Below are positions 2,121 to 55,200 of a stretch of DNA of 64,000 nt, piece after piece. Position numbers and translations under genes: made by a program. Within the stretch, counting starts at the first letter, position 1; each line of letters begins with the position of its first letter. Source of the DNA: Perna viridis (lineage: Eukaryota); contig CM074517.1 of NCBI GenBank assembly GCA_037379345.1, positions 5,022,001 to 5,086,000 of the forward strand. Direction: 5' to 3'. The notes under the pieces were generated by a model. That model worked only from the letters and a program-made list of their open reading frames with translations, was not told the DNA's origin and ran no database searches.

Positions 2121-3042
2121 TGTCAATTCTTTATTTAATATGTATCTACAAAAAATACTGAAGCGTCAACAGTGAGACATTTCAAATATGTCAAAATCCT
2201 AGTACAGGGCCAGTTAAAAACAGAACACAGAGACAATCTACATGTACATTGTAATAAATTGAATAAAATAGATTACATATATAAACTGACGATGAGGAAA
2301 ACAAGATGTAACACAAAAAACTAAAGCACTGTTTCATGCTTATTGCATATGTTAAGAATACTTTCAGTCCCCCCTTTTAATTTTCTATTATTATACACGC
2401 CTTGAAGTTTACCAATATGTTTCACGACCTGGTTTATACAGTTTCAATTTACAATTTACAGTTTACAATTTAGTTTTTTTCTTCTATACCAATAATTCCC
2501 CTTTGATTTTGGGAATAGATAAGGCTCTAGTGTTGTTTTTTTATAGTATTGATGAAGAATAAAATTGGCCGTATGACATTGTGTAAAATAAAAACTAATA
2601 ATTGTGTAATGGATAAAATGCATTTCATAATTAATTGTATAAGAAGAATTAGTTCTCCTTACTAGTAATTAGTCTTTACAGTGCAAACTGGTGTATCCAA
2701 ACAGGAAAAAAAAATAGACTCATAACTGAGTACATCCGTCAAACAGGCATGCTGAACTTAGTACATATTGATATGAATATATGTTTATGTTGACTTATGA
2801 AAAAATGTATAAACCTAGAACTCAGTAGTTATTAATATGTAATTTTTTGATAATTTGATGATCATTATTATTTTACCAAAGTTACAGATATCCAACAACA
2901 ACTTGAGAATACTATCATACAGAAAAAAATTATAATATTTAACAGAGAATATCCTTCTGACAATCAACTATTCAGCTTGGGAAGTTGGTTTTTAGAAGGT
3001 CTCCCTCTTGGTTGTATAATATAATGTATATTTATTTTGTAG

Positions 3043-5504
3043 GTCGTTGTGATTTGTTACCGGGGAACAAACTTATGCCACTTAGTAGTGTGCGTCGTGA
3101 TAGTAACACAAGTACAATAAGTTCATACCTTAGTAGTATGAGATCAGATGCTAGTCCATTTCCTCTTAGTAGTCATATCTCAAGTCGCAGATCAAGTGAT
3201 GTGTCACAGATATCTAATAATCGCCTGAGCATTACAAATTCTCCTTATGAATATGATATAACAGGAAATATTCCTATTCATGGACGTCATGTTCAGGATA
3301 ATAGCAGACGGTCAAGTGAAACCAGCAACATGAGTGACATTGCCGCTCAGCTTCAAAAAGCCCAGCTCGGCAGTCATCCTAATCTTGTTGTACAGTCTCA
3401 GGCTATGACATTACGTAGTCCCTCAAGTAAATATGCTCACGAGAGAGTTGCAAGATTTTTATCTGCTCGTCATGATTTAGACCGAGCTGGTACTAGTACT
3501 CCATGTCGAACACCACTACCTCATGAAATACCAAACCGTGAAGTCAGAAGAGCTAGTGATCCGGTGCGGACTTTAGATCCTAATTTTAGTGCACTTAAAA
3601 AATTGCAACGATATCATAGTTTGAACATGATGAAACCTTTGCCAGTTCCTCAGGCTATGAAAAGTCTAATGAACAAAACTGGCTCAAATAACACTTTCCA
3701 TTCTTCTAGGAGTAGTATAGCTACAGACTATAGTTTGCAAGAAAATGATGAATATGGGTCACCAGGTCGCAATGAACAAGATCATGAGGCTGCTTTAAAT
3801 GAGCAACTAATGGCTGACAATGAGGATATGATCATTCCTGATGACATGCAGAGATTTCTTAATGAGTGTTATAGTCATGGAATACCTAGCAGTATTCAGG
3901 AAATGGATGCATTTCAAGAGAATGAAATCCCAAATGACACTGGCTCTAATCAGCAGATGCAAATTGGGGATGGAAACAATATGCAAATGTCTCCTGGTTA
4001 CTATGGAAACCAGAATTCTATGTTTGCAAGCAATCAGCAAGGACAAATGCAAGCTAACAATATGAGACAAATGCAAAGCAATGGTATGCAAAATAATATG
4101 CAAATGAATTCCACGTGGGATCAAGGTTACAATATGCAAAACATGCCTCAAGGAGGAAACATGAATTGCAACAGTATGCCTCAAAACTCTTCCGGAAATA
4201 TGATGCCACCTAACTCATCAAATAACATGATGCCCCCACCCTCAACAAATATCATGCCTCACCCTCCGTCCATGAATAAACAGGCTCATAATGGGCCAAT
4301 GAATAATATGCAAATGATGAATATGGGAAATCAGAGTATGCAGCAAAGAATGAATAATGGCAGCAACATGCATGGCAATATGCAGATGGCTCAAAGTGGT
4401 GGAAGGAACTTTAACAGTGGCCAACAAATGGGCATGAATCAATGGCAGATGATGCAGAACAGTGGCAGTAATGAACAGTTTATACAGGAGAAGCCACCAC
4501 ATCCGCCAAGTATGCCCAAATCAAATCAGAGACTTAACATGAGGAGAATGGCAATACAAGCCATGGCACAACAGGGTGGTCAGAATTTGATGATGAATCA
4601 GATGGGTGGGTACATGAATAATCAGCAAAATAATATGAATAACCCTCAAAACATGAATAATCCACAAAACATGAATAATCCACAAAGCATGAATATGCCC
4701 ATGCCTGCTGGACAAAATATGCAAATGAATGGTGGTGAAAGTATGCCTATGCCAATATCTGGTGGTCAAAGTATGAACAATATGCAAATGCAGGGTCAGA
4801 TGAGCACTGAACCTATGTTGAACCAGATGCAGTCTGGTTTAATGTTACCTCCACAACCCCCTGTAAACAAACGAGAATCTCAGAGCCCACAAGTACAAGT
4901 ACCTCATATAAGTACGTCACAAGTTCCTGCTCGGGAAAAGGCAAATCACAATCAGATGATGCAACAACAGAATGAGATGATGGCCAATCAGAATAACGGT
5001 AACAATATGCCAAGGACCAATCAAAATAGTTTTAACAATCAGAACTTGTATCAACAAATGCAAGGTAACCAGAATGTAAACCAGACTGGTAACCATGGTA
5101 ATATGATGTATCCTGGCAACATGTACAATCAAAATCAACAACAAATGTGGAATCAACAAAGTATGAATCGTCAAATGTCAAACAATCAGCGATATTCAAA
5201 CAATCCAATGGAAATGTCACCAGGGTGTAACCAGGTTACTAGTTCTACTGATCGGGAAGAACCAGTTCAACCGATTGAAGACTTTATGGAGAATATCAAC
5301 TCGATATCTCAAGAAAACCTGTTAGATAATATGAGTTCTGTGTCTGGACATACATGTACAAGTTATATACCCCCTGGTGGCAATCGATCTGAATCTCAAT
5401 CATCTCGATATTCGATGATGTCAAATAACATGGTCGTTAATGACATGAGCTCAGTTCTCACTCAGTTAGCTCAGGAAAATAAGTATTTGAACATGCGTCA
5501 CTGA
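3043..5504 (+). CDS. gli: Terminal coding exon of a Gli/Cubitus interruptus zinc-finger transcription factor (zinc fingers lie upstream, outside the window)
   Basis: Acceptor TTTTGTAG at 3035-3042 (phase 1). Gli/Ci PKA cluster RRDSNTSTISS, SRRSSDVSQ, SRRSSETS and RRASDPVR. Gli C-terminal motif NMVVNDMSSVLTQLAQENKYL. Stop TGA at 5502-5504. The ORF-track start at 2985 is intronic. Confidence 0.93.
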
Positions 5505-12331: not shown

Positions 12332-15300
12332 TTATTCCATTTCGTCCATGGGTGGACATAGGGCGACTACAGTTTCTCTCCATTCGCTTCGGTTTTGGGC
12401 GATGGTGTTACAATTCTTCCACGTTAGTCCTACTCTCTTCAGTTCAGAGTTCAAACCCCTCCTCCAGGTGTTCTTTGGTCTTCCTCTTTTTCTTTGCCCT
12501 TGGGGATTCCAATCTTAAGCTTGCTTTGTAGTGTTTTTATTGTTCTTCCTTAAAGTATGACCAATCCATTTCCATTTTCGGGTTCGAATGGTGTTTTCTA
12601 TTGGTTGTTGTTTTGTTCTTTGCCAGAGTTTCTTGTTTTTTATTTTTTCTGGCCATCTGATATTCAGTATATTTCTTAGGCATTTGTTAACAAAGACTTG
12701 TATAGATTTCATGGTGTTTTCTGTTTCTCTCCAGGTCTCGCAACCATATAACAGGACAGACTTAACATTGCTGTTGAAAATTTTGATCTTAGTAGTCGTT
12801 CTCAGTGTTCTACTTTTCCATACTGGCTTTAGAATGGAAAAAGCCTGTAATGCTTTCATCTTTCTGGCTTGTACATCTTCGTCAGTGCCTCCAGTTGTAC
12901 TCATGACACTTCCAAGGTACGTAAATTTATCTACATTCTCTATCTGTTGGTTATTTACCAATATTGGATCCATCTGGTTTTGTTGGATTCTCATGGCTTT
13001 GGTTTTGGCTGTGTTGATATACAATCCTGTTCTTTTAGCTGTTTCTTCGAGATGGTTGACCTGGTGTTGGGAATCTTGAAGACGATGCGATAGTGTGCAT
13101 ATGTCGTCTGCAAATTCGAGGTCTTCTAGACGAGATGTTAGTGTCCATTGTATACCATGAGGGTCGTTGTAAGCTGTTGTTGCTATCCAGTCGATGACTA
13201 TGAGAAAGAGAAGGGGAGAGAGAATGCATCCTTGCCTTACGCCAGTTGTTATAGGGAAAGGATCCGTCAATGTACCAGCATGTATGACCTGACAAGAGAA
13301 TTCTTCATACAGTAACTTAATCATGGAAATAATCTTAGGAGGAATCCCATAGTGTCCTAGAATGTTCCATAAGACCTGATGATCTATGCTGTCAAATGCT
13401 TTCTGGAAGTCAATAAAGTTTAGATATAGGGATGACTGCCATTCGATCGTTTGCTCAATAATTATTCTGAGTGTTGCAATCTGGTCGACACATGATCGTT
13501 CTTGTCTAAATCCAGCTTGTTCATCTCTCAGCTTGCTATCAATCTCTTCTTTCATTCTTTGTAAGATTATACTGCATAGGATTTTACTAGGAATGGACAA
13601 AAGAGTTATTCCTCTCCAGTTGTTGCAATTGGATTTGTCCCCCTTTTTAGGTAGTTTTACCAAGAGTCCCTTTTGCCAGTCTTTTGGAATTTTTTCTTTT
13701 TCCTATATCTGGTTTAATAGCCCAAGAAGATATTGAATGGTAGTGTCATTCATGGACTTGAGGGCTTCTGGTGGTATGCCATCGATTCCCGCTGCTTTCC
13801 CATTCTTAAGATGTTTTAGGGCTTTTCTTACTTCATTTTCGGTAATTTTGTCAGTCTCTATGTTAAGTGTTGGACCTTCTTCAAGTATTGGTGGATTTGT
13901 TGGTGGTGGTCTGTTCAATACCTCACTAAAGTGTTCTTTCCATCTGTCAAGCTGATCTTCTAGCTTTGTGAGGGTATTGTTGTTTTTATCTTTGACTGGT
14001 AAATTTTCATTTTGAGAGATCTTTCCACTGAGTTGTCTTGTGATGTTATACAATGTTTTGATGTCTCCTTTTAAGCAGGCGTTTTCAGCTTCTACTGCTA
14101 ACTTTTCAGCATGGTTTCTTTTATCTCTTTTACAGCTTTTCTTCACTTCTCTGTCTTTTGCGCTGTAAAGGTCTTGCAGGTTTTTCTTTTGCTGTCTGGT
14201 TTTGGCACTCATCAACTTTTCTTTTATTTCCCTTCTTTCAGATATTGTATCCCATGTTTGATCTGACATCCATTTCTTTCTTTTCACTTGAATGAAACCA
14301 ACTGTTTCTTCGCATGCTTCCAGAATGGCTGTCTTTGTTGAGTTCCAGATGTCATCAATATCATTGTTCATTTCTTCGTTGTCAAGATCTAATAAAGTAC
14401 TAAATTTGTTCCTGAATGTAATTTGGAAGTTTTCTTTCACTTTCTGATCTTTAAACTTCTCAACATTAAACTTCCTTTTTGTAGTCTCTCTTTTCTTTGT
14501 TGTTAAAAGCTTGAGTTTAATTTTTCCAATTACAAGGTGGTGATCTGATGCTGCGTCTGCTCCACGTTTTGTTCGTACATCTTGTAATGAAGATCTCCAT
14601 CGACGGCTTATTGTTATGTGGTCTATTTGGTTTTCAGTGTCTCCAGATGGTGAAATCCAGGTGGTTTTATGACAAGATTTATGTGGAAACCAAGTACCGC
14701 CAATTACTAGACTGTTTATAGCGCAAAAGTCAGCAAACATCTCTCCGTTCTCATTCATTTGCCCTATTCCATGTGGTCCTATCTCCCTTTCTCTACCTCC
14801 TCTGTCATCACCTACTTTGGCATTCAGATCTCCTAAGATGATAAGGATGTCTCTTTTAGGAACGGCATTAACAACTGATTGTAATAAGTTGTAGAAGTCA
14901 TTTTTATCATCTTCGTCTGCGGTGTTTGTTGGTGCATACACCTGTATAAATGTTGTTTTCTGGAATCGAGTGTCAAATCTAGCTGATATCACTCTTGCAG
15001 ATATTGGATTCCACTCCAAAAGCGATTTCTTGGCTTTCTTTGTAAGCATGAATCCCACGCCTTTGTCATGTATGTCGTCTTCATTTGGATTTCCTGAGAA
15101 TATGACCGTATGACCTGAAGATAGTGTTGTCATTCCAGCTGTATTCCATCTTACTTCGCTGAGTCCTAGAATTTCGATATTGTATCTATCCATTTCGTTC
15201 GCAATTTGCAAGCTTTTGCCACTTTGATACATTGTTCTAACATTCCAAGTGCCTATGGTTGTTGGTTGTTTTGGTGAGAACAACTTCATCAGCTTTCGCG

Positions 15301-15394
15301 TCATTTGCTGTCCTCGATGTTTGGTTTGGTCCTCTTTCTCTAGTCGTTGACGAGTCCGAGGAATGACTTTTACTGTAATCGTTTCTGTAACCAT
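12332..15394 (-). pseudogene. RTE APE-RT ORF interrupted by two in-frame nonsense codons
   Basis: The ORF-track pieces 13703..15394 and 12515..13663 share one frame. TAG at 13703-13705 sits where W is expected (QI*EKEKIPKDW). TAA at 12515-12517 sits where L is expected (QA*DWNPQGQRKRGRPKNTW...VVALCPPMDEME*). The natural stop is at 12332-12334. Confidence 0.88.
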
Positions 15395-15768
15395 TTGTAT
15401 CCACTAGTGGGGGGTTGGCCCTCTAGCTTCAGCTTTATTTTAATGTGGTGGTCAGCAAGTCCCTCACATGCTTTTGTATCAGAGTCAGCTCTCCTAGATA
15501 GGTTCCCTACCATGGGTGACGACTCCTTTCTAGCCGGGTTTTACATCAGAGTTTCCTCTCCTAGACAGGTTCCCTTTCAAAGGTTTGATCCCAGTCTGAC
15601 CATCGTTTTCTGTCTGGGTTGTCTCCCGTAGCCTTTGACTCAACAGTCCATCACAAGGCAGCGATCTATTTAACCCATAGGTGGGGCAAGGTTGGTGAGA
15701 GCCAGGGCGTGTTCCACGCGCCGGTGGGCCTGCACTCTGCACCTCTAGGGTCCTTGTTACTCCGAGAT

Positions 15769-16005: not shown

Positions 16006-17785
16006 AGGATTTCATTTACACTGATATAATACTATTTGATAGGTATAAGATAATACCATTCCATTTAGCTCAGGATAGTCTCACTGATCCAACACACCTA
16101 ATATTCTGAAGATTCTGATTTAAAGGATGCAACTTATCTCATGGCTCATCTTGGCTTATATATCCTTAGAATCAAATGGGGACAAAAAGAGTTATACTAC
16201 TAAGGCTTTACGGTCGTCATCCGATATGGTGTGTCCATCTAAACATGAGAGCATATTCGCTAAATTTGTGTATGTATATACCGGGCATGATACAAGACAC
16301 TCGAGGGAACTCGTTTATATGTAGGCTACTAGGACATGTTCGGTCCATATTCATGATTTTTGTAGAGTCCGTGTGGCTCGATGTTTCATTTTATATCTGT
16401 ATATTATGTGTCTTTTCTGTCCCAGTTTCTTTGCTAAGATTTCAACCGCCCCGACATCGATTTTTACAAAAAAATTGGTGCAATTTTAGTCTTTATTAAT
16501 AGGATTTACATTACAAGTGGGTAGTGATTTCAATTTGTGATGCTAAAAAAATACAATACTTTAATTTTCCGTAATTCCACTAATAGGGGGATTCCGGTTA
16601 AGGAAAGTCTAAATTTTCAAATAAAAATAAAATTATTTAGCCCATAAGTTAATTTAAAACCCTTGCCATCTTTGTGAAGTGGCCTTAGGGAGGGGTTACC
16701 GGAATAGTAGTAATTAAGTTGTTAATTTCGAAAATGAACCGTTCGCCGGAACTAATATAGAACACTTCAAGTTCGTTGAAGTGTAACAGTATAAGATAGT
16801 ATTTATAACGGTAGAAAATCATTATGACAAAACGGACAATTAGATAAAACATGACCCCATTTCCCCTCCGCTCTAGGCTATATTTGTACCATAAACATGA
16901 CCTCCTTACTTTAAGTGGTTGTATTTTATACCTATGAGGACCGAAATGAATATTTACAATTTGTAATTTCAGTGAAGCATTGGAGAGCTCTCATCAAGGA
17001 CAGGTGTCGACTTTTACCTGAAAATGTCATAATTTTCAGTTGTTCGGTATATAAATGGTGATATGTTAAATTTGCCTACGGCAAAATGTTTGAAAAAACT
17101 GTTCACAATTCGGGTCCGAACTATAGCCACGGGAAGCTATCCAGTAAAATCTTAAACAATGCTATAAACTTTAAAACGGGTAAGTGCTATACTTATACAT
17201 GTATTATTTATGAGAAATCAAACAAAAGAAACTTAACTGATCAAGGTGATTTTATATGACATTGTATATAAATTCTGACATATGTATCATCATTTTGACA
17301 TGTACAACTGACAGGCGCATAATTATACGGTATATTACTAAACAGTTAAGGTTGCCTGGATTGTGTAAACATCAAATTAGCGGCAATTAAAAAAAAACAG
17401 AAATTATGAAAAAGAATTAGTGACAAATGTGTGACAAATGTGTGACTTCCGTTATACTGCTAATGATAGTAAATGGATTGATAGGCAGTCTTCATAAGGT
17501 AACTATTCATAACCAAAAGTTGCTAAATCAATGTTCTATCTACTGTACTCTTGTTGCTCCTTGTCGGCTCCTGATTGTGATATAAAAGATGTTATGATAC
17601 GCTATGTATTGCTTTTGTAATCCGGAAGAGCCCGAAAAACATTAAGCGCTAATTGTGCCTCTAATATCTCTATAGTGCTGTGTTCTAAAAAGGAAAGGTG
17701 CCTGGTGGCTCTTTCTACCTTCTCCTAAAATAAAACAGTAAAATACAAGAGCTGGCAAAACAAAACAAGCAGTTATAATAGTGTA

Positions 17786-19053
17786 ACAAAACAATACTAG
17801 ATATGTACCCTGTTCCGTGTGTAACAAAATGAACATGTACCATATGGCGTTGAAAACTATAATGGACTTGTTTCCTATGCCTTGACTAACAATAAGGACA
17901 TGTTCCCTATGCCTCGAGTAACAATAAGGACACTAGTGTTCCCTATGCCTTGAGTAACAATAAGGTCACTACTGTTCCCTATGCCTTCAGTAACAATAAG
18001 AACGTGTAACGATAACGGACATGTTCCTTAAGCCGTGAGTAACAATAAGGACCTGTTCCATATATAAATATACTGGATCTGTTTCCTATGCTGTAATTGC
18101 AATATTGGACCTGTTCCTCTTTGTCGTGAGTAACAAAGCAATACTGGATCTGTTCCCTATGTCGTGAGTAACAAAACAACACTGGATGTGACCATGTGTC
18201 GTGAGTAACAAAGCAATATCGGATTTGTTCCCTATGTCGTGAGTAACAAAACAATAATGGATCTTTTCCCTATGCCTAGGTAACAAAACAATATTGGATC
18301 TGTTCCCTATGCCGTATATAACAAAGAAATATCAGATCTGTCCCTATGTCGTGAGTAATAAAGCAATATCGTAGGTAACATAACAATACTGCATGATCTG
18401 TTCCTATGTCGTGATAACAAAGAAATATCGGATCTGTCCCTATGTCGTGAGTAACAATGAAATCGGATCTGTTCCCTATGTTCTGAGTAACAAAACAATA
18501 CTGGATCTGTCTCTATGTCGTGAGTAACAAAACAATCATGGACCTGTTTCCTATGCCATGAATAACAAAACAATTCTGGATCTGTTCCCTAAACTGTCGA
18601 TCTCAAAACAATACTGGATCTGTTCCCTTTGCTGTGTGTGAATTAACAATACTTGATCTGTTCCCTATGTCGTAGCAAAACAATATTGGATCAGTTTCCT
18701 ATGCCGTAAGTAACAATACTCGACCTGTTCCCTATGTCGTGAGTTACAAAACAATACTGGATCTGTCTGTATGTCACGAGTAACAAAACAAGACCGGATC
18801 TGTTCCATATGCCGTTGGTAACAAAACAATAATGGATCTATCACTTAGTCGTGAGCAACAAGGCAATATCGGATTTGTTCTCTATGTCGTGAGTAACAAA
18901 ACAATACTGGATCTGCCTGTATGTCATGAGCATCAAAACAATACTGGGTCTGTTCCCTATATTATGAGTAACAAAACAATAATGGATCTGTCTCTATGTT
19001 GTGAGTAGCAAAACAATACTAGATTTTTTCCCTATGGCGTGGGTAACAAAACA
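17786..19053. repeat. Degenerate 38-bp satellite (AACAAAACAATACTGGATCTGTTCCCTATGTCGTGAGT)
   Basis: Roughly 30 diverged tandem copies; they explain the repetitive minus-strand ORFs at 17979-18573. Confidence 0.9.
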
Positions 19054-20614: not shown

Positions 20615-23600
20615 ATGGCTTTGACAGAAGAGCGTGCAGCCTGTCTGTTTTGGGCCGGTACTATATGTGCATTCCTGTTTACCATATTGTATTCATCATT
20701 CTGCATTCTTAAAATGTAAGTTGAATCTCGTAACTACAATGAATAATTCCATCCATTTTCAAAGTCAAATACCGATAAACTAAACAAGGTAAAAAAAAAC
20801 AAACAATAACAATTTTAAATTGTTCACCAGCATTGGCTAGAGGGCACGATAAAAGTAAAAAGGTCAACGACACGTTGTGTTTTAGGATGCAACAACCAAA
20901 ATCCACCAAAACTTTAATATATTAGTATTGTCGATGTAAGAAATGACAGTGAACAGATCGATTATCGAGCATTGTACATTGGTCGTGATTGAGAACAGAT
21001 CGATTATCGAGCATTGTACATTGGTCGTGATTGAGAACAGATCGGTTACCGAGCATTGTACATTGGTCGTGATTGAGAACCGATCGATTACCGAGCATTG
21101 TACATTGGTCGTGATTGAGAACCGATCGATTACCGAGCATTGTACATTGGTCGTGATTGAGAACAGATCGATTACCGAGCATTGTACATTGGTCGTGATT
21201 GAGAACAGATCGGTTACCGAGCATTGTACATTGGTCATGATTGAGGATTTTTAGGAATAATTGTGTTCCCCAGTTCATTTTTGTTACTATTTCCACAAAC
21301 TACATTTTTGTACTACCGTTTCACAAACAAATCAAGTATCAAGGTTTGACAAAAAAATTTCTATTGATAAGTGATCAATGTGGACTTTGGCTTTTTAAAT
21401 CATTTATGATATATTTCAGAAACTGCAATGAATGAATTTACTCAGCCTTATATATTTTAAAGGCGTTGGAGGCTACAATTAATTATTGAATTTTTATTTT
21501 CTAAAATTGAAAGACAATTAAAGATAATAACCCTTTTTTTATTTTAAAATAACATTTTTTATGGCACGTCGTATTATATTTATTCCAATTTGTAGATATC
21601 TTCTATTTTTATAAGATATCTTACAAAATAAATAAAATATCTTATGTAATGTACAGTTTATAAGATATTTTTTTTTAAATATATAAGATATTTTTTTAAA
21701 TATATAAGATATCTTAAATACTTTATCATATATCTTACATAGGTTATAAGGTATTTCATTAGTATACAAGATACATAATAAACCGAGATATCTCATATAT
21801 ACTTTATAAGATATCTTTATGCAGAATACTAGAACGTCAACAACTGCTCCCTTGCAAATAGCCAATCATAAATTTAAGAAATAATTCGTGGAGGGGGTAG
21901 ATTTGTGCTCATTTTAACATGGGGTCGGCATTTATATTCGATTATTTAACACCGAGCGACATGAGGACGTGATGTTAGAAATTCCATTTATTCGCTGCAG
22001 TACTTGGCGGCGCAAATTTAACGGTAGAGGAAAGGTATACAAACGTTTTATGCAATGGCTTGAAAGCTTTTAAAAGAGCCAATTGTCGCTCCGACACACA
22101 TGATCAAGTTTCTGTCGTCCAAAATTTAGGGACCCTTTATTGTTATCATACCGGGTATAAGATATGAGATTAAAACTTTCTTTTACAGGACATATTCTTT
22201 GTAACATATCTCATAAGGTTTTTTTTTACAATATCTTATAAACTTCACAAGTTATCTTATTAACTGTATCAGATATAAATAAAATTATATAAGATATCTC
22301 GTTTCTTTTATAGAGTAATCAAGAGAACCAAGGTTATAGTGGTAATCAAAAGAACGCAATCCAGGGACAAAGACCAGACACGGAAAACAGACATACAAAA
22401 CAAAGAACACAAAGTAACCAAAACCATACATACAAATTAACAAAAGCAAATGAGCAACTCGGACTCCACTAAAAACTGGGAGCATGGACCAGGTCCACCT
22501 TCAGGGTAAGCGTCCACTGCTCCTCTAGAAACACCCGCCGAGTTGCTCACAAAAAGTCAAGTCCGGGGTAGACAAACGAGGAAAGGAAACCCATGACCCG
22601 TTGAATAAATCAGTTTTCATGGTGCAGATGGATACACCATAACGATCCACGAGTTCATGATGACGACCATAAAACTTCTGTAGTGATGACTTCAATCTTG
22701 TAGCAACATAACCTAGTTCCAGAAGCCTATTTGTTAGAGTTCGAGCGCGATACAAAAAGTCTGGGTAGTTTCGGCAAGCTCTGGCATAACGTATGAGTTG
22801 TGATATGAACACTCCATACGCAGGTGCTGAAGGGATGTTGCAACAGATGAAAGGAAAGTTGACAATTTTTAATGAAAAGTCATCACGTTTATCGTAAAGT
22901 TTGGTCAATAGTTTTCCTTTACCATCGATTACTAAGTGTAGGTCAAGATATGAGGCTGACTTCACAGTGTCTGTAGTATCCTTTATCTCAAGTTCTTTTG
23001 GGTAGATGCGATGTATGAAATCCCCGAAATTAGGATTGTTTAAAGATAATACGTTATCTATATAGCGGTAACTGAGATCAAAGGATCTAGCCAAACGATA
23101 TTCTTTCTTTCGGATCAGATCAGCTATAAAGTCAGCCTCATAAGAGTGAAGGAATAGATCAGCAAGTAAAGGAGCACAATTTGTTCCCATTGGAATGCCG
23201 ACCGTTTGTTGAAAAACACGTCCACCACACAGGACAAATATGTTGTCGATTAAAAATTCCAGCATTTTGTAAACATCTTCCTCTGTATATTTGGAAGATG
23301 ATTTGAATTATTTCTTACAAAGTATGAGGAATCTCTACCAAGAACTATATATTTGTATCTAGGTGTACCATCTGTTTTGGAAAAACAACGATGCATAATG
23401 TTTTTAAGTCGGGATTTTAACTGGGTATGGGGAATAGAAGTATACAGTGTTGTAAAATCATAGGTGTTAATGCAATTATATTCACATAATAGTTGTGAAC
23501 TGATTGTCTCCAAAAGATCTTTCGAATTTTTCAGGATCCACATTGAATTAATACCACTACGAGAGTAACAAGTGTTGTGGTAGGACTGCAGACCCTCTTT

Positions 23601-26600
23601 GACAGTTGTGAGTATAGAAGTTTAAAGTTTTGAAAGAGGTTTGGTGCTACATTTTGCAGAACCAGCTATGAAACGTTGTTTGTATGGATTCTTGTGGAGT
23701 TTAGGAATCCAGTAAAGGATATCTTTTGAAGATATATGCTATCTTATAAACTTTATAAGATATCTTATATATGTTATAAGATATTTTATTGAAAAAAGAA
23801 GATATCTACTGAAAGAGTAGAGTATCAACAAAAGTCAAAATAGCGCTGCAAACAACGTTGGGGTTTTTAGGAATCGCCCTGTCAACTTACATTTCCTTCT
23901 AAACCGCTCAAAGGGTTACATATCTAAACTGCTTTGTTCTTTCATTTGCATTCTTTATGGGAATTTGTTATTACTTTTTTGCTTCAGAAAACCAGTTGGT
24001 TCAGAAACATGTGCTTTTCTAGAAATCGCTACCGTAGCGTCAGTACTTGCCTTTATTATAGGAATGGGATATTATTGCTATAAACAGAAGGTAAGTTTAT
24101 TGCGCTCTCATAAAAATGTACACTTTTATTTTGTTATATATGTTTATTCTCTTCCTTTATGAAGCTATATTCACATTATTTCTCAAACTTTAAAAATAGA
24201 CAAAAAAGCAAGCAAAAGCAAACAAAAACATTACAAAACAAGAAATACGAAAACAAATCACATTTCGTTTCTTAAATTACATGTTTGTATCACCCTTGAA
24301 ATATACTATTAAAGTTTGAAATACTAGAACATGAATTCAGTTTTGCAAATAATGTTACTCAATTTCAACTGTTAATACATTGTCTATTGTTTACAGTTTG
24401 GAATGTCTGTTCAGAATGATTTATATGCTAATTATACTCACTGGACCATATCCAAGCCTCTCAACTACACCAAGGAGACAGGGACACTGAGTCCTGTATC
24501 TGATGACGAATTACCATCAGGTACTTTTGTTATAGTCTTTAGTGCTCAGTAATCCTTGCCAGAATAAATATATATACAGTATGTATATCCTATAGCCATC
24601 AAGTAGAATAATGACCATATTTGTCACAGACGAGTGGTCACTATCCTTGTGGGAAAGAAGTCCGATAATCCAAGCTGGAAAAATCTGTGAAATCCTTGCA
24701 CTTAGGTCTTGACACATGTGAGGCTCCAACCAAAAGGGATTCCAATGACAGGGCCTCAATGACCACTTGAAGTCCTTAAAATTTATATTCCTATTCTAAT
24801 CATATTTCTATAACATACAGTATATGTTACACAAATTGTTGGTTTTATCAGTGATTTTAGTATTTTTCCATTTTCAGATTTTGAGTGCTCTATATGTAGT
24901 GAAGGCAAGGAACAGATGCTGGTAGTTCAGTTAAATTGCTTGCATTGTAAGTTTCACAATTAAAAGCGTTTCATTAATTGTTAATTGAATTCAACCAATA
25001 TTTTGTTTCAATAGTATGCAAGAAAATTTGTCGTCGTTTTTGTTAAAAAAAACTTAACAAACAACGAAAGAACGCCAGGAAGATCCCTGTAATATAGCAA
25101 TTGCTAATATCGTAAAATTTAAATGCTGTGTACATTCGACAGATTTCCATAAAACATGTATACAGCAATGGTTTAGATCTGACCATCAAAAACGTTGTCC
25201 ACTATGTCGGACTCGACAGAGCAGAAGAGAAAGACTTGTCGTATTAACCATAGTACCTCCTATACTACCAGTCACACAATTAGAGGTGAGTTCGAATAGT
25301 CGTATTAACCATAGTACCTCCTACACTACCAGTCACATAATCAGAGGCGAGTTCGATTAGTCGTATTAACCATAGTACCTCCTACACTACCAGTCACACA
25401 ATTAGAGGTGAGAAAGATTAGTCGTATTAACCATAGTACCTCCTACACTACCAGTCACATAATCAGAGGCGAGTTCGATTAGTCGTATTAACCATAGTAC
25501 CTCCTACACTACCAGTCACACAATTAGAGGTGAGAAAGATTAGTCGTATTAACCATAGTACCTCCTACACTACCAGTCACACAATCAGAGGTGAGAAAGA
25601 TTAGTCGTATTAACCATAGTACCTCCTACACTACCAGTCACACAATCAGAGGTGAGAAAGATTAGTCGTATTAACCATAGTACCTCCTACACTACCAGTC
25701 ACAATCAGAGGTGAGAAAGATTAGTCGTATTAACCATAGTACCTCCTACACTACCAGTCACATAATCAGAGGTGAGAAAGATTAGTCGTATTAACCATAG
25801 TACCTCCTACACTACCAGTCACACAATCAGAGGTGAGAAAGATTAGTCGTATTAACCATAGTACCTCCTACACTACCAGTCACACAATCAGAGGTGAGAA
25901 AGATTAGTCGTATTAACCATAGTACCTCCTACACTACCAGTCATACAATTAGAGGTGAGAAAGATTAGTCGTATTAACCATAGTACCTCCTACACTACCA
26001 GTCACAATCAGAGGTGAGAAAGATTAGTCGTATTAACCATAGTACCTCCTACACTACCAGTCACATAATCAAAGGTGAGAAAGATTAGTCGTATTAACCA
26101 TAGTACCTCCTACACTACCAGTCACACAATCAGAGGTGAGGTCGAATAGTCGTATTAACCATAGTTACCTACTACACTACCAGTCACACAATCAGAGGTG
26201 AGAAAGATTAGTCGTATTAACCATAGTACCTCCTATGCTACCAGTCACAATCAGAGGTGAGAAAGATTAGTCGTATTAACTATAGTACCTCCTACACTAC
26301 CAGTCACACAATCAGAGGTGGGGTCGATTGGGTTTCCAAAAACTGCCAGTGCCAGTAATATTCTAAGTACTGTTCGCTGTACACAAATAGATACAATATT
26401 ATGAAATTAGCAAACCATCACACAAACTCACTAGCTATTCGAAATTTAGCTGTTTGTTTTTGTTTTGTTGTTATGTTGTTGTTTCAATTTTTTGTTTTTG
26501 TAAACCACACAAGGGTAAAGAAAGAGCTTAAATCGGAAAAAAATATAGAAAATAAAAACAGACAGCATTGTCTGTGTAGTATAATTGCTGTCTTTTGGTT

Positions 26601-26854
26601 GCTCTATACGGGAGTAACTGTCATTTTCGATTTATTACCACTAATTCCTATTACTTTTCAGTCGGGAATAGATACGTATACCTTGGCTGTTTAAAACACA
26701 TGTACATGACTGTCTGAAATGAAAATTAATTGTTCTTTGAATTACCAGTATCTCCATCAGCTTGTAAAGCAAGGGGTAGAAAAATGTTACATTTAAATTA
26801 ACGACAATGGTATATCATGTGCGTAATATTTTCTTCTATGATTTCTAGGTATGA
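20615..26854 (+). CDS. Two-transmembrane RING-H2 E3 ubiquitin-ligase-like protein (~181 aa, 6 coding exons)
   Basis: Exons 20615-20715, 23988-24090, 24397-24520, 24878-24946, 25143-25285 and 26849-26854 are all GT-AG and phase-consistent. Protein: MALTEERAACLFWAGTICAFLFTILYSSFCILKIKPVGSETCAFLEIATVASVLAFIIGMGYYCYKQK...DFECSICSEGKEQMLVVQLNCLHYFHKTCIQQWFRSDHQKRCPLCRTRQSRRERLVVLTIVPPILPVTQLEV*. Complete C3H2C3 motif with the conserved W. The last exon and the start codon are less certain. Confidence 0.82.
20951..21244. repeat. 42-bp minisatellite, 7 copies (intron 1 of the RING gene)
   Basis: Unit GAGAACAGATCGATTACCGAGCATTGTACATTGGTCGTGATT. Because 42 is divisible by 3, it yields spurious 14-aa-repeat ORFs. 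Confidence 0.95.
21590..23810. repeat. ATAAGATATCTT-rich repetitive element interrupted by the Penelope-like insertion
   Basis: Many ATAAGATAT(CTT) motifs at 21590-21820, 22155-22300 and 23718-23810, on both sides of the RT fragment. Confidence 0.45.
22310..23717 (-). mobile_element. 5'-truncated, degenerate Penelope-like element (RT core, thumb and 3' region)
   Basis: Motifs LYWIPKLHK, MWILKNS, TYDFTTLYTSIPH, GIPMGTNCAPLLADLFL, RYIDN (catalytic DD lost), YLDL and LYDKRDDF. One stop and one frameshift near 23270-23310. No C-terminal GIY-YIG. Confidence 0.85.
25227..26325 (+). repeat. 59-62 bp tandem array, 18 copies, derived from the 3' end and splice donor of RING-gene exon 5
   Basis: GTCGTATTAAC recurs at 25238, 25299, 25360, 25421 ... 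26211 and 26270. Copy 1 is coding; almost every unit ends in GAG|G(T/C)GAG. Confidence 0.93.
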
Positions 26855-27622
26855 CCATAGTATCAAGTCATGGCGTCCGAATAACACTAATTATCTTTGA
26901 TGTTGCTTTGTTCATCTTTGATGACATGTGATTGACACCAATTATCTTTTCATCTTTGATGACGTGTGAGTGACAGTCCGCAATGGTAGCGTAATTGGCA
27001 ACCTCAGAACAAACATGATATTTCAGAGTGGTGCTAAAAGTGTAGAAATTTGCATCGTGATCTATTAAAATGATTTATGTATATATTCGCATTTTTGTAA
27101 AATACTATTTTTTTTTATTTATAAAAAAAAGAAGATATTATAATTCTGTCTATAGTTGTTTAATTCAGTTTGCTTCAAGTTATTTTTATTCTTAATACTT
27201 TATCAGAAAATGTATATATATCAAGATAAAATTCATTGATACAAGTTACACAAGTAGAGATTATATGTTTAGTATAAATTAATTCCTTAAAGCTTCCAGT
27301 AATCAAACATGGGGAGCTGATTACAGTAATCAAACATGGGGAGCTGATTACTTAATTGTATGAGAAAGTAAGTCGTTTCTATTTCGAATTGTGAATTTTC
27401 CATCTTGTCACAGTGTTTTTTTTTCTCTTTTCTTTTTTTTTTAGCTGATGGAATATATATGTTGATGTTGTACGTAATTCGCGGGTTTGGTCAATTTAAA
27501 CTTAAGGATCAAAGCCAAAGTCTATACGATACTACGCTGTACTAGAAAATCTCTGTTAGGAGAATTATTTTAAGTTTTCAACTGATTTTTTTTCCGTATA
27601 TCACCGATATTGGTCAATCTTT

Positions 27623-28709
27623 GTCATATCGGTACAGCTGGACCAATGTACCTAGGTTATGAAGTCCCAGTTTCTCAGAGGGTGGTTGTCATATCGGTAC
27701 AGCTGGACCAATGTACCTAGGTTATGAAGTCCCAGTTTCTCAGAGGGTGGTTGTCATATCGGTACAGCTGGACCAATGTACCTAGGTTATGAAGTCCCAG
27801 TTTCTCAGAGGGTGGTTGTCATATCGGTACAGCTGGACCAATGTACCTAGGTTATGAAGTCCCAGTTTCTCAGAGGGTGGTTGTCATATCGGTACAGCTG
27901 GACCAATGTACCTAGGTTATGAAGTCCCAGTTTCTCAGAGGGTGGTTGTCATATCGGTACAGCTGGACCAATGTACCTAGGTTATGAAGTCCCAGTTTCT
28001 CAGAGGGTGGTTGTCATATCGGTACAGCTGGACCCATGTACCTAGGTTATGAAGTCCCAGTTTCTCAGAGGGTGGTTGTCATATCGGTACAGCTGGACCA
28101 ATGTACCTAGGTTATGAAGTCCCAGTTTCTCAGAGGGTGGTTGTCATATCGGTACAGCTGGACCAATGTACCTAGGTTATGAAGTCCCAGTTTCTCAGAG
28201 GGTGGTTGTCATATCGGTACAGCTGGACCAATGTACCTAGGTTATGAAGTCCCAGTTTCTCAGAGGGTGGTTGTCATATCGGTACAGCTGGACCAATGTA
28301 CCTAGGTTATGAAGTCCCAGTTTCTCAGAGGGTGGTTGTCATATCGGTACAGCTGGACCAATGTACCTAGGTTATGAAGTCCCAGTTTCTCAGAGGGTGG
28401 TTGTCATATCGGTACAGCTGGACCCATGTACCTAGGTTATGAAGTCCCAGTTTCTCAGAGGGTGGTTGTCATATCGGTACAGCTGGACCAATGTACCTAG
28501 GTTATGAAGTCCCAGTTTCTCAGAGGGTGGTTGTCATATCGGTACAGCTGGACCAATGTACCTAGGTTATGAAGTCCCAGTTTCTCAGAGGGTGGTTGTC
28601 ATATCGGTACAGCTGGACCAATGTACCTAGGTTATGAAGTCCCAGTTTCTCAGAGGGTGGTTGTCATATCGGTACAGCTGGACCAATGTACCTAGGTTAT
28701 GGAGTCCCA
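27623..28709. repeat. 65-bp near-perfect tandem array, 16 full copies plus 1 partial
   Basis: Unit GTCATATCGGTACAGCTGGACCAATGTACCTAGGTTATGAAGTCCCAGTTTCTCAGAGGGTGGTT; starts at 27623+65n up to 28663. Confidence 0.97.
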
Positions 28710-29529
28710 ATTTCAGATTGTGGTTTTATCTACGTTCTCTCTTATTTTTGTTGTCCTCTTGTTTTGACATTAACCAGTTGGTGCGTTCACAATTCTACAA
28801 ATTGATATCGATGTGTATCAATGGTACCTTTAAACTGTGAGCAGTATTTTGGTACCATTGGTAAGATATTTAACCATTTAATTTTAAAATAGCTAGTATG
28901 ATTACATACTCTTAAAAAGACAGGAAAATTGTTCCCGTATTAAATTGTACTAAATAGTTCCTTGAATATTCAACCTGACAGGAATAATGTTACCATCGAT
29001 ATCTTGTACGGAACTAGTGGCTGCCAAAATAATAATAATAATAATAATAATAATAACCATAATTGATAAACAAAGGTATCAATGATTTTTTTTTACCCAC
29101 AGTAATTGTTGGTTCAACTGTGAACGTACCTTATAACAATCAGTTTATAAATACTGTTTTGTCGTTTGCTTTTTTTTCATTTTAGTTAAAAAAGACTTAT
29201 AATTCTAGTACTTCATTATAGCAGGGTTGGGGAAATAAAACCAAAGAATCAAACAGCAAGAAGTAGTTAGAAAAGCTCTGCAGTAGTACTCTAACCAACA
29301 CAACTGAATGGTAAATAAACACTTGGTATTTCCAAGACGTCATCCAATGAGGTCTTATACCCAGTTATCAACAGAAAAATAAATCATCTCAGTAATAATC
29401 AATACTTCCTGTAACCAGTCTACGTCGACGCATGTGACTTTTTGATATACCTATAGGCGGTTAATGACTTTCACGTAATAAATACATGTAAAAATCATTT
29501 TTGTCGTACAAAACTACGTTAACAAAAGT

Positions 29530-30166: not shown

Positions 30167-33080
30167 CATTCAAATTCAGTTAAAGTGCGCCAATAGGGAC
30201 GGAAAAACAGCCAGATATTTTGAACACTGAAAACAATTCAAATGATTTAATTAAAAAAAAAAACCAAAGTTTGAATAGCAAGAAAACGCATGAGATAGCT
30301 CTTGATAAGTTGATTAATGTCCTGTACGAAATTTTGAACATGTCCAGTGTATTTTGGTAGTGAATTACGTTACTTCTGGACACCCATGTTGAATAATAAT
30401 AGTTTCATCATACAATTATTCAAAACTGCGCTTCAAATGATATCATTCGATAGAAAAATGCACACAACACAAAGCAAATATTTTGTTCAGAAATTGTTAT
30501 ATTTTTTAAAGATGCTCTATATTTTATAACATCTAGTAAAAAAATAATAAAACAAAATGAAATTGAAAACAAGTTTCCTTTTTATTCTTTGGAAACATAA
30601 TTAGCAAAAGATGAAGGCCAATTTAGCAACCTATTTCCATTCATACATCTTTTAGGTGATATATAGAAAACAATTGTGGATTTAAATCCAATTTGAATGT
30701 TTATAATTAGCTTAACGTGAATGGCCGACTTTGTAACGTAATTCACTTATAACAGTGTAATATATAATCAATGGCTTTCTCATGCTTAAATTGGAACACA
30801 TAACAGAATTGGAAGGTTAAACACAAAAAACAACAAATTGCAATATTTTGGCGATTGATATTAAAAAAAATCATACATGTATCTGTTAAGTTTGTCACTT
30901 TTATATACGCCACATGAAGAAACATAGAAGTCTTTAGTGGCATGTAAGGAAATGATAATGGTACTATTGGTTCGATAAATTTTTTAACATATTATAACAA
31001 ATATTTCTGGAATACTTTCAAAGCATAAAATGTTTGATCAACGAGTAGTCTTCTAGCAGAATAATTACAATGTTAAAATTAAAATGTAACGTAATTCACA
31101 GAAACAACTTTTCGCTGTTATTGTAACGTCACTTGAAAGAGTGATCAAGCTAGGGAACCAAGATTCTAGCGGAAATCAGAAGAATGTAATCCAGGGACAA
31201 AGACCAGACACGGAAAACATTCAAACACAACAAAGAACATAAAGTAACTAAGATAATACATACAAAGTAACAAAAGTAAATGAGCAACTCGGACTCCACT
31301 AAAAACTGGGAGCATGGACCAGGTGTACCGGTTGGGTAATCGTCCTCTGCTATTCTAGAAACACCCACCGAGCTGCTCATAAAATGTAAGTCCAGGGTAG
31401 ACGAAAGAGGAAGGAAAACCATGATACGTTGAACCCCCAGACCCCTTGCCGTAATTTTGCCTACACTTCAATTTGGCCTCAGCTACGCGTCTGTTTGTCA
31501 TAAAGTTTGGTCAATAGTTTTCATTTACCATCGATCTCTACATGTAGGTCAAGATGTGCGGCTGACTTTACAGTGTTTGTGGTATCCTTTATCTCAAGTT
31601 CTTTGGGGTAGATGCGATGTATCAAATCCCGAGAATAGGATTGTTTAAAGATAATACGTCATCTATACAGCTGAGAAATTGAAATTAATCGTTGCTTAAC
31701 GGTGCATTATCATATATTTTATCGTAGTGATGCTTGATTTCAATATATATTCCTTGTTTTCAAGTGATCTGAATAAACAAAAACAAAAAATAATTTATAA
31801 TCTATATCAGTTCACGAAGAAGCTTACATATCGTTTTTGTGCTTACTTAAATTTTTGCAATGATTAAATTGTTTTTGACTGGCTTTTGCATTTTGAAAGG
31901 TATTTCTAATGTTTCTCACGACAAGTTGTCATGTGAAACCATTTTCTGTAATCAAAATACACAGTTTATGAATAGGTGAATTACGTTACACCGTAATATA
32001 TACCACTGCTTGATTTACAATGTATATATCATACATAGCAATATCGTATTGTCATAACATCTTACCAATACATATATTCTCCGTTTCTAAGTTAAATTAA
32101 ACTGAAAATTAATAATATCTAAATAGTTGCACTGAACAGAAATTAAGGACACCTACGACTAGAGGGAATGTTTACATCAGGAACGCCTTTACAATTGTTC
32201 CCGCGTCACAACTTCCTTTCTAAAGATGCCCGTATGATAGGCGATGTCACTGATAATGATTTATAGTTAATTTGTTCACAGAACAGTGTTTTTATCCGTT
32301 TAAAAAGAAATTACCGTAACGTAATTCACTGTAACGTAATTCATGAACTTGTACTTTACCAAGGATGTGAAAAAAAATATGTAGCACCTGAAAAATCTGT
32401 TTAAGGGTCATTTATAACTGACATTGGTGTGTGTACAATTAAGAATATGGAAAGTTTGCTACTATCATTAACAGATGCAAGCGACACCGTAACGTAATTC
32501 ACAATTAAATGCACATTTGGAAAAAAGATAAAAATCATGTATTTTTAAATAAAAACATTATCCTTTACGTGTGAATCATTCATTTTCTTATTGTTTATTA
32601 TTTTATATATTTTTCCTCACATAGACTTACCATATGTGTCAGTTACATTTTCATTACAGCTGCAGGAAAATTGTAACGTAATTCACTGTGTTTCATTAGA
32701 CGTCTGTATTTTGTGGGGGAAAAAGTTAAATCGTTTTCGATGTAAAAATAACTGTTAAAATTGTGTTGTCTGGCCATTTTTTTCTACTAGAAAACTTACT
32801 GGGCGTTCTTCATTTGGAGTATTTTATATTTTTGTATGCATTTTTAGGGGAACCCTAATTTGTGACATAGGGTTTTTGTCGATTGAGTCTTAGATGTTTT
32901 ATAGTTTTTTTGTTCAGTGAACCCGATCAATGCCCCGGCCGTAAACTATGTTTTTACAATCTGGCATAACCCTGAGAGTAAATTTATTCCAAAACTATAT
33001 CAGGAAATAGCTTTTTTGTGTTTGAAAATAGCTTGTGACTACAAAAATTGGCTTTGGCGCACTTTAACTGAATTTGAGTG
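30167..33080. mobile_element. Non-autonomous DNA transposon with 27-bp TIRs and 3-bp TSD (CMC/CACTA-Chapaev-like)
   Basis: Left TIR CATTCAAATTCAGTTAAAGTGCGCCAA; right TIR reverse complement CACTCAAATTCAGTTAAAGTGCGCCAA. AAG flanks both ends. Eight internal copies of GTAACGTAATTCAC. No transposase ORF. Confidence 0.78.
31140..31670 (-). mobile_element. Second, internally deleted Penelope-like fragment nested in the TIR element
   Basis: 31140-31430 matches 22314-22600 (CCAGGGACAAAGACCAGACACGG, GAGCAACTCGGACTCCACTAAAAACTGGGAGCATGGACCAGG). 31500-31670 matches 22890-23065 and retains IDD. Confidence 0.8.
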
Positions 33081-52200: not shown

Positions 52201-55200
52201 AGTCAATTAACAACTCTATCACTAGAATTATTTAAATATCTAATACACATTTATCCCCAAAACGATTGCATTAATCATTAATTCAAGAAATATCAAACTT
52301 GCTCACATCTGCCACACCTTAAGTAGCAGTCTTTATAAAAACCAGACAGGAGGTGATTCATGCGTGTCAAAAACCCACTGAACTCACTTTTATTTCTTGT
52401 TCAGAAACAGTTCCTGATCACATAACCAGTCTTAGTTTTTCATTTGGACATTGTGCTTTTGAGAAAAAAAAACATATGGAATGTACATGAAATTGACACT
52501 TTGCAAGAGTTATCTATCTTGTTAATTGTTTGATTTGTGTAATATTAGTGAGAGATAAATGTATGATTTTATCAAAAGTACAGATCTGATAGCACAAGTA
52601 GATTGAAAAAGCATCATTTTTTCTTCAACATGAATCACTTTAATATTGGCACTGTCTGATTTTTATGCGGACTGTTACTTAAACAAATAAATCTCTATTC
52701 TGTATTTGGTTTACTCCAATGACAATAAGTCCTACATACTGGTGGTAATTAATGTTCTAAATCTGGACTTCATAATTAGAAATGATACATATTAAGTTAT
52801 TCAACAGAAATCAGTTGACAACTGTATGAATGAGCAAACAGACAAACAGACAGACAGGTATCTCAGCCATGTTATTTTTACAGGGTATAATCTAAATACT
52901 AACCTCAAGTGATCTGACTTTAACATGATTCTGATTTTGGACTTCCTGTAAATGTTCCTTTAGCTTCTCTATTTCCTCTTGGTTCTGCTGTAGTTCTTTC
53001 TTCATGGCATCAATCCTCTTCCTTTCCTCAATCAGACACATCTTGTACCTTGCAAATAAAAACATTGCATTCATGATCATTGGGATAAAGATTTTTGCAA
53101 TATAAAATGAATTTTTGTTTTTAATGTAAGGATCCATACTGATAGTTATATGTCATAAATCTGTATATTTTCTTGAACTACATGTACCAGAAGAAATTGA
53201 ATATAAAAAAATTCAACAGGTCTGAAAACCTAAGATAACTATTTAAACTAATGCACTGCCTTGAATCAAATTTTAAATCTAACTGAAACTACCCAGCCTA
53301 ATTTCCTCAAATTGCATACTGTGTTTCATTGAATGTTTAACAAATAGTTCCTTGATTAAATAAATCAAAAGAATTAGTGTGTTTCTCAATATAAAAAAAT
53401 TCTTCTGTCACATGTTAAATAGAAGTATGAATCAATATAAATAATCAATTTCTTAATTTTACAGTTTTATGAATTAGTACATTTTTTAAAAAATTTCTTT
53501 GTATGTTAACTGAAACTTACTTTAACTTCTTTTCCTGTCTGATACTGAGCTCTCTTCCAACACCTTCGAATTGTTCATGAAGTTTAGTTTCTATGGCAAC
53601 CTCACCAGTAGATGATTCACTAGTAGATCTCTGGCACTGTTCTACAGTAACTACTCCTGTTTCAGATGTTTGGTCCTGTGGGGATTTTTCTGAAGAGTAA
53701 GTGAAGAAGTTGCAATGTAATAGAGACAAATAAACCAACCTATTGAAAAATCTCACTTCAAGGCACTTTCTATAATAAATGGAACAAAGTACAATAAGCA
53801 TTATTTTTTTAATATCAACACTTTTTACAGATGCCTCCAGTATATTTTAGGCGATGTATATAAAAAAAACATGGCAGACATACAAATACGTAGGCATATT
53901 AAAGTTATCAAATTAAATTTCTGTTTACATGGCATTTACTACATGATCAGTACAATATAGTAAGCACTATTCAAATTAGAAAGGATACCTTACTGCAATA
54001 ACCATGAGGTCAAAATATAAAGATAAACAGAAAATGATGTTGATTCACTAATGTTAGATGTTAAGTGATTGTAAGAAAACTGTAACGAAAAAGTAGTGGA
54101 TGGAGGAATGATAGACAAACACCATAATCCTTGTCTTTATATCTTGACAACTTTAATATAGAAAATCATGGACATAACTGAAAAATTCACAATATGAAAA
54201 TTATGAATCCAATTGGACAACCATTTTTTAAAGTTACTAGTTCTGTGTACCTATTTATGTAGGTTACTTTTAAGTGTCAAACCCTATGACCTTAAAACTT
54301 ACTTTTCTCCAATTTTTCTACTTTCTTGTGTAGTTTTCTGTTTTCCAGGTACAAGTTTCTATACTCATTAGAGCCCATTGTAAGTCTTTCTTTCAAGTCT
54401 TCTATTTCCCGACCCATATCCTTGATTTGTTGTTTAAATTCTTTCTGCAGACAATGAATGAAAATACAACAACGAATTAGTTCAAAAAGCTGATTCAAAA
54501 CATTAAATAACAAAGAAACTGGATAGCTACTAACATTGATATAGAAACTGGATAGCTACTAACATTGATATAGAAACTGGATAGCTACTAACATTGATAT
54601 AGAAACTGGATAGCTACTAACATTCATATAGAAACTGGATAGCTACTAACATTGATATAGAAACTGGATAGCTACTAACATTCATATAGAAACTGGATAG
54701 CTACTAACATTGATATAGAAACTGGATAGCTACTAACATTGATATAGAAACTGGATAGCTACTAACATTGATATAGAAACTGGATAGCTACTAACATTGA
54801 TATAGAAACTGGATAGCTACTAACATTCATATAGAAACTGGATAGCTACTAACATTCATATAGAAACTGGATAGCTACTAACATTCATATAGAAACTGGA
54901 TAGCTACTAACATTGATATAGAAACTGGATAGCTACTAACATTGATATAGAAACTGGATAGCTACTAACATTCATATAGAAACTGGATAGCTACTAACAT
55001 TCATATAGAAACTGGATAGCTACTAACATTCATATAGAAACTGGATAGCTACTAACATTCATATAGAAACTGGATAGCTACTAACATTGATATAGAAACT
55101 GGATAGCTACTAACATTGATATAGAAACTGGATAGCTACTAACATTGATATAGAAACTGGATAGCTACTAACATTGATATAGAAACTGGATAGCTACTAA

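Follow-up and report, generated by a model that had tools for sequence, protein, structure and literature searches.

Minisatellites whose first unit spans an exon-intron boundary have been described in the human F7, 6-16, CBS, LMNB2, and PDGF genes (Borensztajn et al. 2006, PMC1557585). In that account, the authentic donor alone is described as used in F7, LMNB2, and PDGF, and two more sites, the nearest pseudo-sites, are used in 6-16 and CBS. F7 constructs are reported there to show the functional site that lies most upstream winning and the downstream copies noncompeting even when strengthened (PMC1557585). Duplicated exon-intron boundaries termed "mirages" have been reported in lancelet Adh3 and in the globin genes BflGb6 and BflGb9, with regular splicing unaffected; their units show length instability and concerted evolution (PMC3087553). 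A literature search by title or abstract start returned no intronic splice-site minisatellite from a bivalve, which does not imply absence from print.

We analyzed a 64,000-nt window of the Perna viridis genome (assembly GCA_037379345.1, contig CM074517.1, positions 5,022,001 to 5,086,000, forward strand); all positions given are those of the window. It contains a locus that belongs to this known class of exon-intron boundary minisatellites, with which every tested feature agrees. The lancelet BflGb9 mirage likewise duplicates the 3′ boundary of an exon in an invertebrate (PMC3087553), whereas the P. viridis array lies in a mollusc and has a 61-bp unit, 18 copies, and 59 exonic nucleotides of 61. 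The 37-bp VNTR of human F7 intron 7 also has a boundary-spanning first unit and a reiterated donor of which the most upstream is used, but its unit contains 4 exonic bases, its donors are identical, and it has 5–9 copies (PMC1557585); the P. viridis unit has 59 exonic bases and 18 copies, and all of its downstream donors are unlike donor 1. LMNB2 (100 bp × 10–15) and PDGF intron 4 (81 bp × 16–18) are similar in unit size, copy number, and use of a sole authentic donor (PMC1557585). The 31-bp VNTR of CBS intron 13 and that of 6-16 intron 2 share the layout and have two further donors in use (PMC1557585), whereas no further donor was seen in use at the P. viridis array, at low read depth. We consider it probable that this is a locus-specific minisatellite repeating a coding end and its donor 18 times, in which the first donor is spliced and copies 2–18 are likely neutral.

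The array (+ strand) comprised 18.0 copies with 93% matches according to TRF, and splitting it yielded 18 anchors, arranged head-to-tail at a single locus, with anchor-to-anchor periods of 59–62 bp. Both results agree with the original prediction, made from the sequence alone, of a 61-bp unit (25227–25288) whose first copy is an exon end plus its donor. Copy 1 consists of the final 59 nt of the exon 25143–25285 plus GT, and the first unit thus spans the exon-intron boundary. Each copy carries one donor-like site (25286, 25347, 25408 ... 26318; 18 in total), so that the splice signal is reiterated in the intron by 15 GT and 2 GC donor-like sites beyond donor 1. A count of the donor words bore out their earlier description: GTGAGT is perfect in copy 1 alone, GCGAGT occurs in copies 2 and 4, and GTGAGA occurs in 13 copies, the remaining two words being GTGAGG (copy 15, 26136) and GTGGGG (copy 18, 26318).

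The unit is confined to this locus. A 122-bp query returned one candidate region in the 723-Mb, 46-contig genome, and all 16 exact 19-mer matches lay inside the array (16/16; reversed control, 0). Neither the 19-mer nor the 122-bp genome search found the unit at other loci, and it does not behave as a dispersed repeat. Tandem arrays are error-prone in assembly, and the exact copy number comes from one assembly and one haplotype, the contigs of RNA run X1 collapsing the array; that the array is an assembly artefact is nevertheless hardly credible, as its units bear structured variants and the X1 contigs, which derive from another sample, hold unit-to-unit junctions.

Features of the RING-H2 gene and of the minisatellite at its last coding junction. 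Positions are those of the 64,000-nt window; X1 and X23 are RNA runs.
Feature	Position	Strand	Evidence or remark
First coding exon, ATG 20615, first predicted TM helix	20611..20715	+	Loose read ends before 23988; Mytilus identity
Coding exon, second predicted TM helix	23988..24090	+	Read depth; GT-AG joint to 24397
Coding exon, linker	24397..24520	+	6 X23 reads and the X1 contig splice to 24878
Coding exon, first half of RING-H2	24878..24946	+	5 X23 reads and the X1 contig splice to 25143; orthologue alignment
Coding exon, RING-H2 second half plus C-terminal tail	25143..25285	+	Pfam; RNA; orthologue tail
Minisatellite	25227..26320	+	TRF; unit alignment; all genome matches at the same locus
Leu/Ser codon site	25281	+	T (TTA, Leu, position −2) in copies 1, 3, 5, 12; C (TCA, Ser) in the other 14
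Donor 1, GAG/GTGAGT, seen used	25286..25291	+	7 X23 reads and X1 contig; duplex energies
Last intron (1,563 nt; array copies 2–18 fill ~1,035 nt)	25286..26848	+	Junction reads
Donor 2, GC-type (GCGAGT); the same change in donor 4 at 25469	25347..25352	+	Sequence
In-frame TAG, met when donors 1 and 2 are passed	25358..25360	+	Translation
3′ flank	26320..26331	+	Imperfect direct repeat (6/12) of the array's exonic start 25227–25238
Start of last exon: one Val codon, TGA, then 3′ UTR	26849..26854	+	Loose ends past 25287 match 26851 onward (X23, X1)

The product of the host gene has 181 aa, with two hydrophobic segments (two predicted TM helices) and a RING-H2 finger. All eight ligands of the C3H2C3 pattern C-x2-C ... 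C-x-H-x2-H-x2-C ... C-x2-C (8/8) are found across the exons 24878–24946 and 25143–25285. The half-domain Pfam matches (zf-rbx1, E = 1e-5; zf-RING_2, E = 1.6e-5) were both below the curated cut-offs; the orthologue carries PF13639/PF12678. Identity of the gene model was 69.6% to the Mytilus galloprovincialis protein (P0001) and 70.7% to that of M. californianus, and oyster and pearl-oyster relatives showed 28–36% identity to the Mytilus protein. The Mytilus proteins XP_076090402 and XP_063420359 likewise have 181 aa, two hydrophobic segments, a RING-H2 finger, and a tail, but the Mytilus protein ends in S-Q-V (S-Q-I in M. californianus), whereas the P. viridis protein ends in L-E-V. Their name, "RING finger protein 150-like," is automatic, and orthology to RNF150 is not established because 181 aa leave no room for a PA domain. 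Membership in the RING-H2 family suggests a putative role as an E3 ligase.

The terminal residue of the orthologues is Val, Ile, or Leu, which supports the start of the last exon. The automatic models of three relatives (P0020, P0027, and P0014) continue straight after Gln-Val, a run-on that would fit an intron at the equivalent place in those genes. When the 47-aa exon was searched as protein against the genome, no paralogue emerged (16 candidates scored; 10 matches, all at the locus). Homologous-protein searches retained 0 of 2 candidates with the exon piece, 4 of 32 with P0001, and 4 of 958 with the alignment, the last of which yielded no closer relative; in the protein atlas search every match was below 0.9, and these are leads at most.

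RNA reads aligned to 23800–25300 were obtained from four of 24 listed runs (X1, X21, X22, and X23), with 19–25% of each of X21, X22, and X23 sampled and differences in fewer than three reads not listed. X23 gave 22 reads, all oriented as a + strand transcript (stranded library) and limited to exons. Seven of these leave the exon after 25287 and continue in the exon at 26849, the GT being common to both sides, and none of the 22 runs past 25300 into the array; the depth over 25279–25300 was 3.68, equivalent to approximately 9 reads stopping at 25287. X1 yielded one 621-nt contig (depth 37.2) that passes through all junctions, joins donor 1 to the last exon, and has no other letters over 25143–25287. 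None of the listed runs is recorded as RNA, but X1 contains RNA, since this contig is spliced. Over 23800–25300, X21 gave 2 reads and X22 gave none. RNA joints along the exons (X23 reads, X1 contig) establish that the gene is real, transcribed, and spliced. A candidate exon near 24630 was rejected because all junction reads skip it.

The upstream authentic donor dominates the mRNA (7 junction reads vs. 0 read-through reads, plus one contig, at low depth). No use of donors 2–18 was seen in the X23 reads or the X1 mRNA contig, also at low depth; 0 of 7 junction reads at other donors allows up to approximately 35% use (95% confidence). In reading these counts, mates are nonindependent, contigs lose rare forms, and NMD would deplete the products of donors 4–18. 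The X1 array contigs had a summed depth of ~5.3 per extra copy, vs. 5.4 for the contig of the preceding intron. Contig depth is rough and no measure of copy number, and on this rough scale the array depth in X1 does not exceed unspliced background. Compared with the assembly, X23 carries a C→T change at 24046 (4/4 reads; Leu→Phe in the second hydrophobic segment) and a difference in a single base of the 3′ UTR (26863); it is thus another genotype, still with the copy-1 bases at the exon end.

Predicted U1 pairing was calculated as duplex energy with the generally known motif of the U1 5′ end. Donor 1 had the strongest pairing of the 18 sites (−10.8 kcal/mol), and every downstream donor was predicted to be weaker: −6.4 kcal/mol for the GC sites and −9.4 to −10.2 kcal/mol for the others, with the 13 GTGAGA donors at −9.6/−9.7 kcal/mol. 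For the four upstream coding donors of the gene, the values were −5.4, −10.6, −7.1, and −5.4 kcal/mol. Because GTGAGA pairs better than three constitutive donors of the RING-H2 gene, the downstream sites are plausible donors. The array variants were not significantly enriched in the donor 9-mer (4/15 or 5/16 events in a hand count; P = 0.16 and P = 0.07, respectively); therefore, selection against the downstream donors is not demonstrated.

Reading through donor 1 adds VSSNSRINHSTSYTTSHIIRGEFD and stops at TAG 25358–25360, and the translation agrees with the original prediction in both the peptide and the stop. Donor 2 precedes this stop, and its 227-aa product would lack a premature stop; the later donors all follow the stop, at a distance of 47 nt for donor 3 and 108–957 nt for donors 4–18. 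Transcripts with a stop more than 50–55 nt before a junction are subject to NMD, a rule established in mammals that may not hold in molluscs. The proposal that most downstream donors would create NMD substrates thus holds for donors 4–18 (15/17), which exceed 50–55 nt, whereas donors 2 and 3 escape. By this rule, NMD would spare both of donor 1's closest rivals, and the known cases point to these as the sites with the best prospect of use.

The array had also been proposed to tune expression or the balance of isoforms through donor competition or U1 titration. Neither this nor tuning through NMD is supported by our RNA data, in which all junctions, a small sample, are those of donor 1. A rheostat of this kind, in which downstream donors compete with donor 1 and divert transcripts to altered C-termini or NMD so that copy number tunes output, is in our judgment very unlikely. 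The U1 pairing of the 13 GTGAGA donors does fall inside the span shown by real donors, more than 55 nt would separate the stop from 15 of 17 downstream junctions, and human 6-16 and CBS use their nearest pseudo-sites (PMC1557585). However, X23 contained 0 read-through reads against 7 junction reads, the X1 mRNA contig is joined at donor 1, and X1 shows no surplus depth over the array. In addition, the downstream copies of F7 are described as noncompeting even when strengthened (PMC1557585), and donor 2, the nearest rival here, is GC-type and weak (−6.4 kcal/mol). Under the neutral reading that we prefer, the upstream-most donor would win, as in the known cases, being met first, closing an exon of normal size, and pairing best with U1. 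Copies 2–18, lacking good acceptors, would be removed with the intron and ignored in splicing.

The acceptor side of the unit was consistent with its earlier description as a cassette of ~47 nt bracketed by TAG and GT and lacking a pyrimidine tract: the bracket is present, and its upstream stretch has 4/17 pyrimidines, vs. 9–14/17 at six real acceptors. A second acceptor-like site in each unit, a CAG overlooked in the earlier note, has 11/17 pyrimidines, of which only 4 are T (6–13 T at real acceptors). The AG sites of the units are T-poor overall, with 2–6 T vs. 6–13 T per 17 nt at the six real acceptors. Each unit also contains a branch-point-like TATTAAC (25243–25249 in copy 1), a C-rich tract, and the CAG 14 nt before the donor, that is, a complete yet weak mini-intron anatomy, of which no use was seen in the RNA. 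Recursive splicing and 14-nt micro-exons through the AG sites of the units were rejected, the acceptors being T-poor and none having been seen. A 9-base match of the unit with the start of the last exon was no better than chance, since 273 of 11,741 random 50-mers reached an equal score.

The frequency of comparable arrays was estimated from 59 of 60 ten-kb stretches on 12 contigs (590 kb; one N stretch was dropped). The sample contained 17 arrays (period 20–150, ≥5 copies, ≥85% matches), of which 5 satisfied stricter limits (period 30–100, ≥10 copies, ≥90% matches). Scaled genome-wide, these correspond to approximately 20,800 and 6,100 arrays (95% range of counts, 9.9–27 and 1.6–11.7, respectively). 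The units of 4 of the 17 sampled arrays had a loose donor-like motif. Assuming 150,000–250,000 introns and a 45-bp end unit, 57–324 donor-straddling arrays are expected by chance, before selection. The array itself far exceeds chance, but its straddling of a donor does not.

TRF detected three more homogeneous arrays in the window besides the 61-bp array. A 42 bp × 7 array (20951–21245, 97%) lies in the intron after the first coding exon. A near-perfect 65-bp × 16.8 minisatellite (27621–28714, 99% matches) begins ~770 bp past the stop of the RING gene; it is the only such locus in the genome, and no exon is tied to it. A 29 bp × 30 array lies at 54514–55390 (98%). Upstream of the first coding exon, an old degenerate array of 36–38 bp (17803–19053, ~25 copies, 69%) has the donor-like word GTGAGT in many units, with no source exon identified. 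At 16973–17179 there is a possible 5′ UTR exon, flanked by a good acceptor and, at 17180, by a donor with strong predicted U1 pairing (−12.5 kcal/mol). An open frame of 847 aa (2961–5504, +) has abundant Q, M, and N, and we take it to resemble a Gli/Ci transcription factor's large terminal exon; a 36-bp × 7 array precedes it at 1777–2033. On the minus strand, two adjacent frames at 12515–15403 are LINE-like endonuclease and reverse transcriptase, a label given from the look of the sequence. A reverse transcriptase fragment (22300–23560, −; 260-aa frame at 22525–23307) lies in an intron of the RING gene, and a shorter related copy occurs downstream at 31170–31670.

The peptide of copy 1 aligned without gaps to the Mytilus tail and with gaps to the oyster tails. 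Since this tail aligns with those of bivalve orthologues, copy 1 is old coding sequence. The conserved coding tail, together with a unit unique to the locus and the lack of a paralogue, indicates that the array grew from the exon end into the intron. The earlier suggestion that a satellite had been born from coding sequence is upheld by the conserved orthologue tails and by the uniqueness of the unit. The opposite course, exonisation of the first unit of a satellite or mobile repeat that already existed and had entered the intron, is extremely improbable: the genome is rich in minisatellites, but the unit peptide aligns to the Mytilus and oyster tails and the unit occurs at a single locus. We rejected exonisation on the conservation of the tail in orthologues.

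We envisage growth out of the exon as beginning with a 61-bp duplication between imperfect direct repeats in the exon (25227–25238) and at the start of the intron. Later growth and homogenisation may have proceeded through slippage and unequal exchange. Copies 2–3 and 4–5 form a near-duplicated block, in which both GC-type donors (2 and 4) sit, and the post-donor spacers are of two kinds, exon-like in 13 copies and 3′-flank-like in 4. Slippage and unequal exchange are suggested by this two-unit block in copies 2–5 and by the resemblance of the spacers to each flank.

Four bases set copy 1 apart from the array consensus. Two of these, at 25235 and 25237, leave Leu unchanged, and two change the amino acid, at 25263 (Ile in copy 1 vs. 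Thr in the array) and at 25281 (Leu vs. Ser). In the unit alignment the Ser codon is present in 14 of the 17 intronic copies. The residue at position −2 is Ser in Mytilus, P0036, C. virginica, and Pinctada, and Ala in P0011. The simplest reading would be that the array kept an older Ser codon and that the T moved between the coding copy and the array; alternatively, T→C in the array may have restored Ser by coincidence. S/T-x-V is the pattern of a class I PDZ ligand.

These bases could be read as the trace of an archive. The array, ignored by splicing, would store older exon ends and trade bases with copy 1 by unequal crossover or conversion, so that the last residues (Ser vs. Leu at −2, perhaps a ligand of PDZ type) would change at a higher rate than by point mutation. 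We regard this as quite unlikely. The 14 of 17 intronic Ser codons agree with the residue of Mytilus, P0036, C. virginica, and Pinctada; copies 1, 3, 5, and 12 have the Leu-type T in common; and the majority spacer has the AAA of the exon amid intron-like bases. The argument concerns a single site, however, and at 25263 copy 1 (Ile) is nearer to Mytilus (Leu) than the array (Thr) is. Moreover, chance reversion to Ser is possible, and the outgroups are known by protein, not by codon. With listing at ≥3 reads, X23 shows no variant letter at any base that separates copy 1 from the later copies, 25263 and 25281 among them, and the X1 mRNA contig likewise has none at these two; there is accordingly no sign of array-type alleles in the coding copy. 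It is also unlikely that the array is a silent cassette store that keeps the ancestral Ser-x-Val ending, of late lost from the coding copy, and swaps bases with that copy by unequal crossover or conversion, with selection having kept the array harmless by disarming donor 2 (GT→GC) in parallel with human CBS.

The locus adds a bivalve to the known cases of this oddity and conforms to the rule by which, among repeated donors, the most upstream is the one in use. With an outgroup protein for comparison and units that are exonic over 59 bases, it provides a clean case of coding sequence giving rise to a minisatellite. Its importance would grow if the downstream donors were used in proportion to copy number. 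If array-type alleles occurred in the coding copy, an intronic repeat would be steering the evolution of a C-terminus, and if the cassette reading were true, repeat turnover would switch a membrane ubiquitin ligase's putative PDZ-type docking motif on or off from allele to allele.
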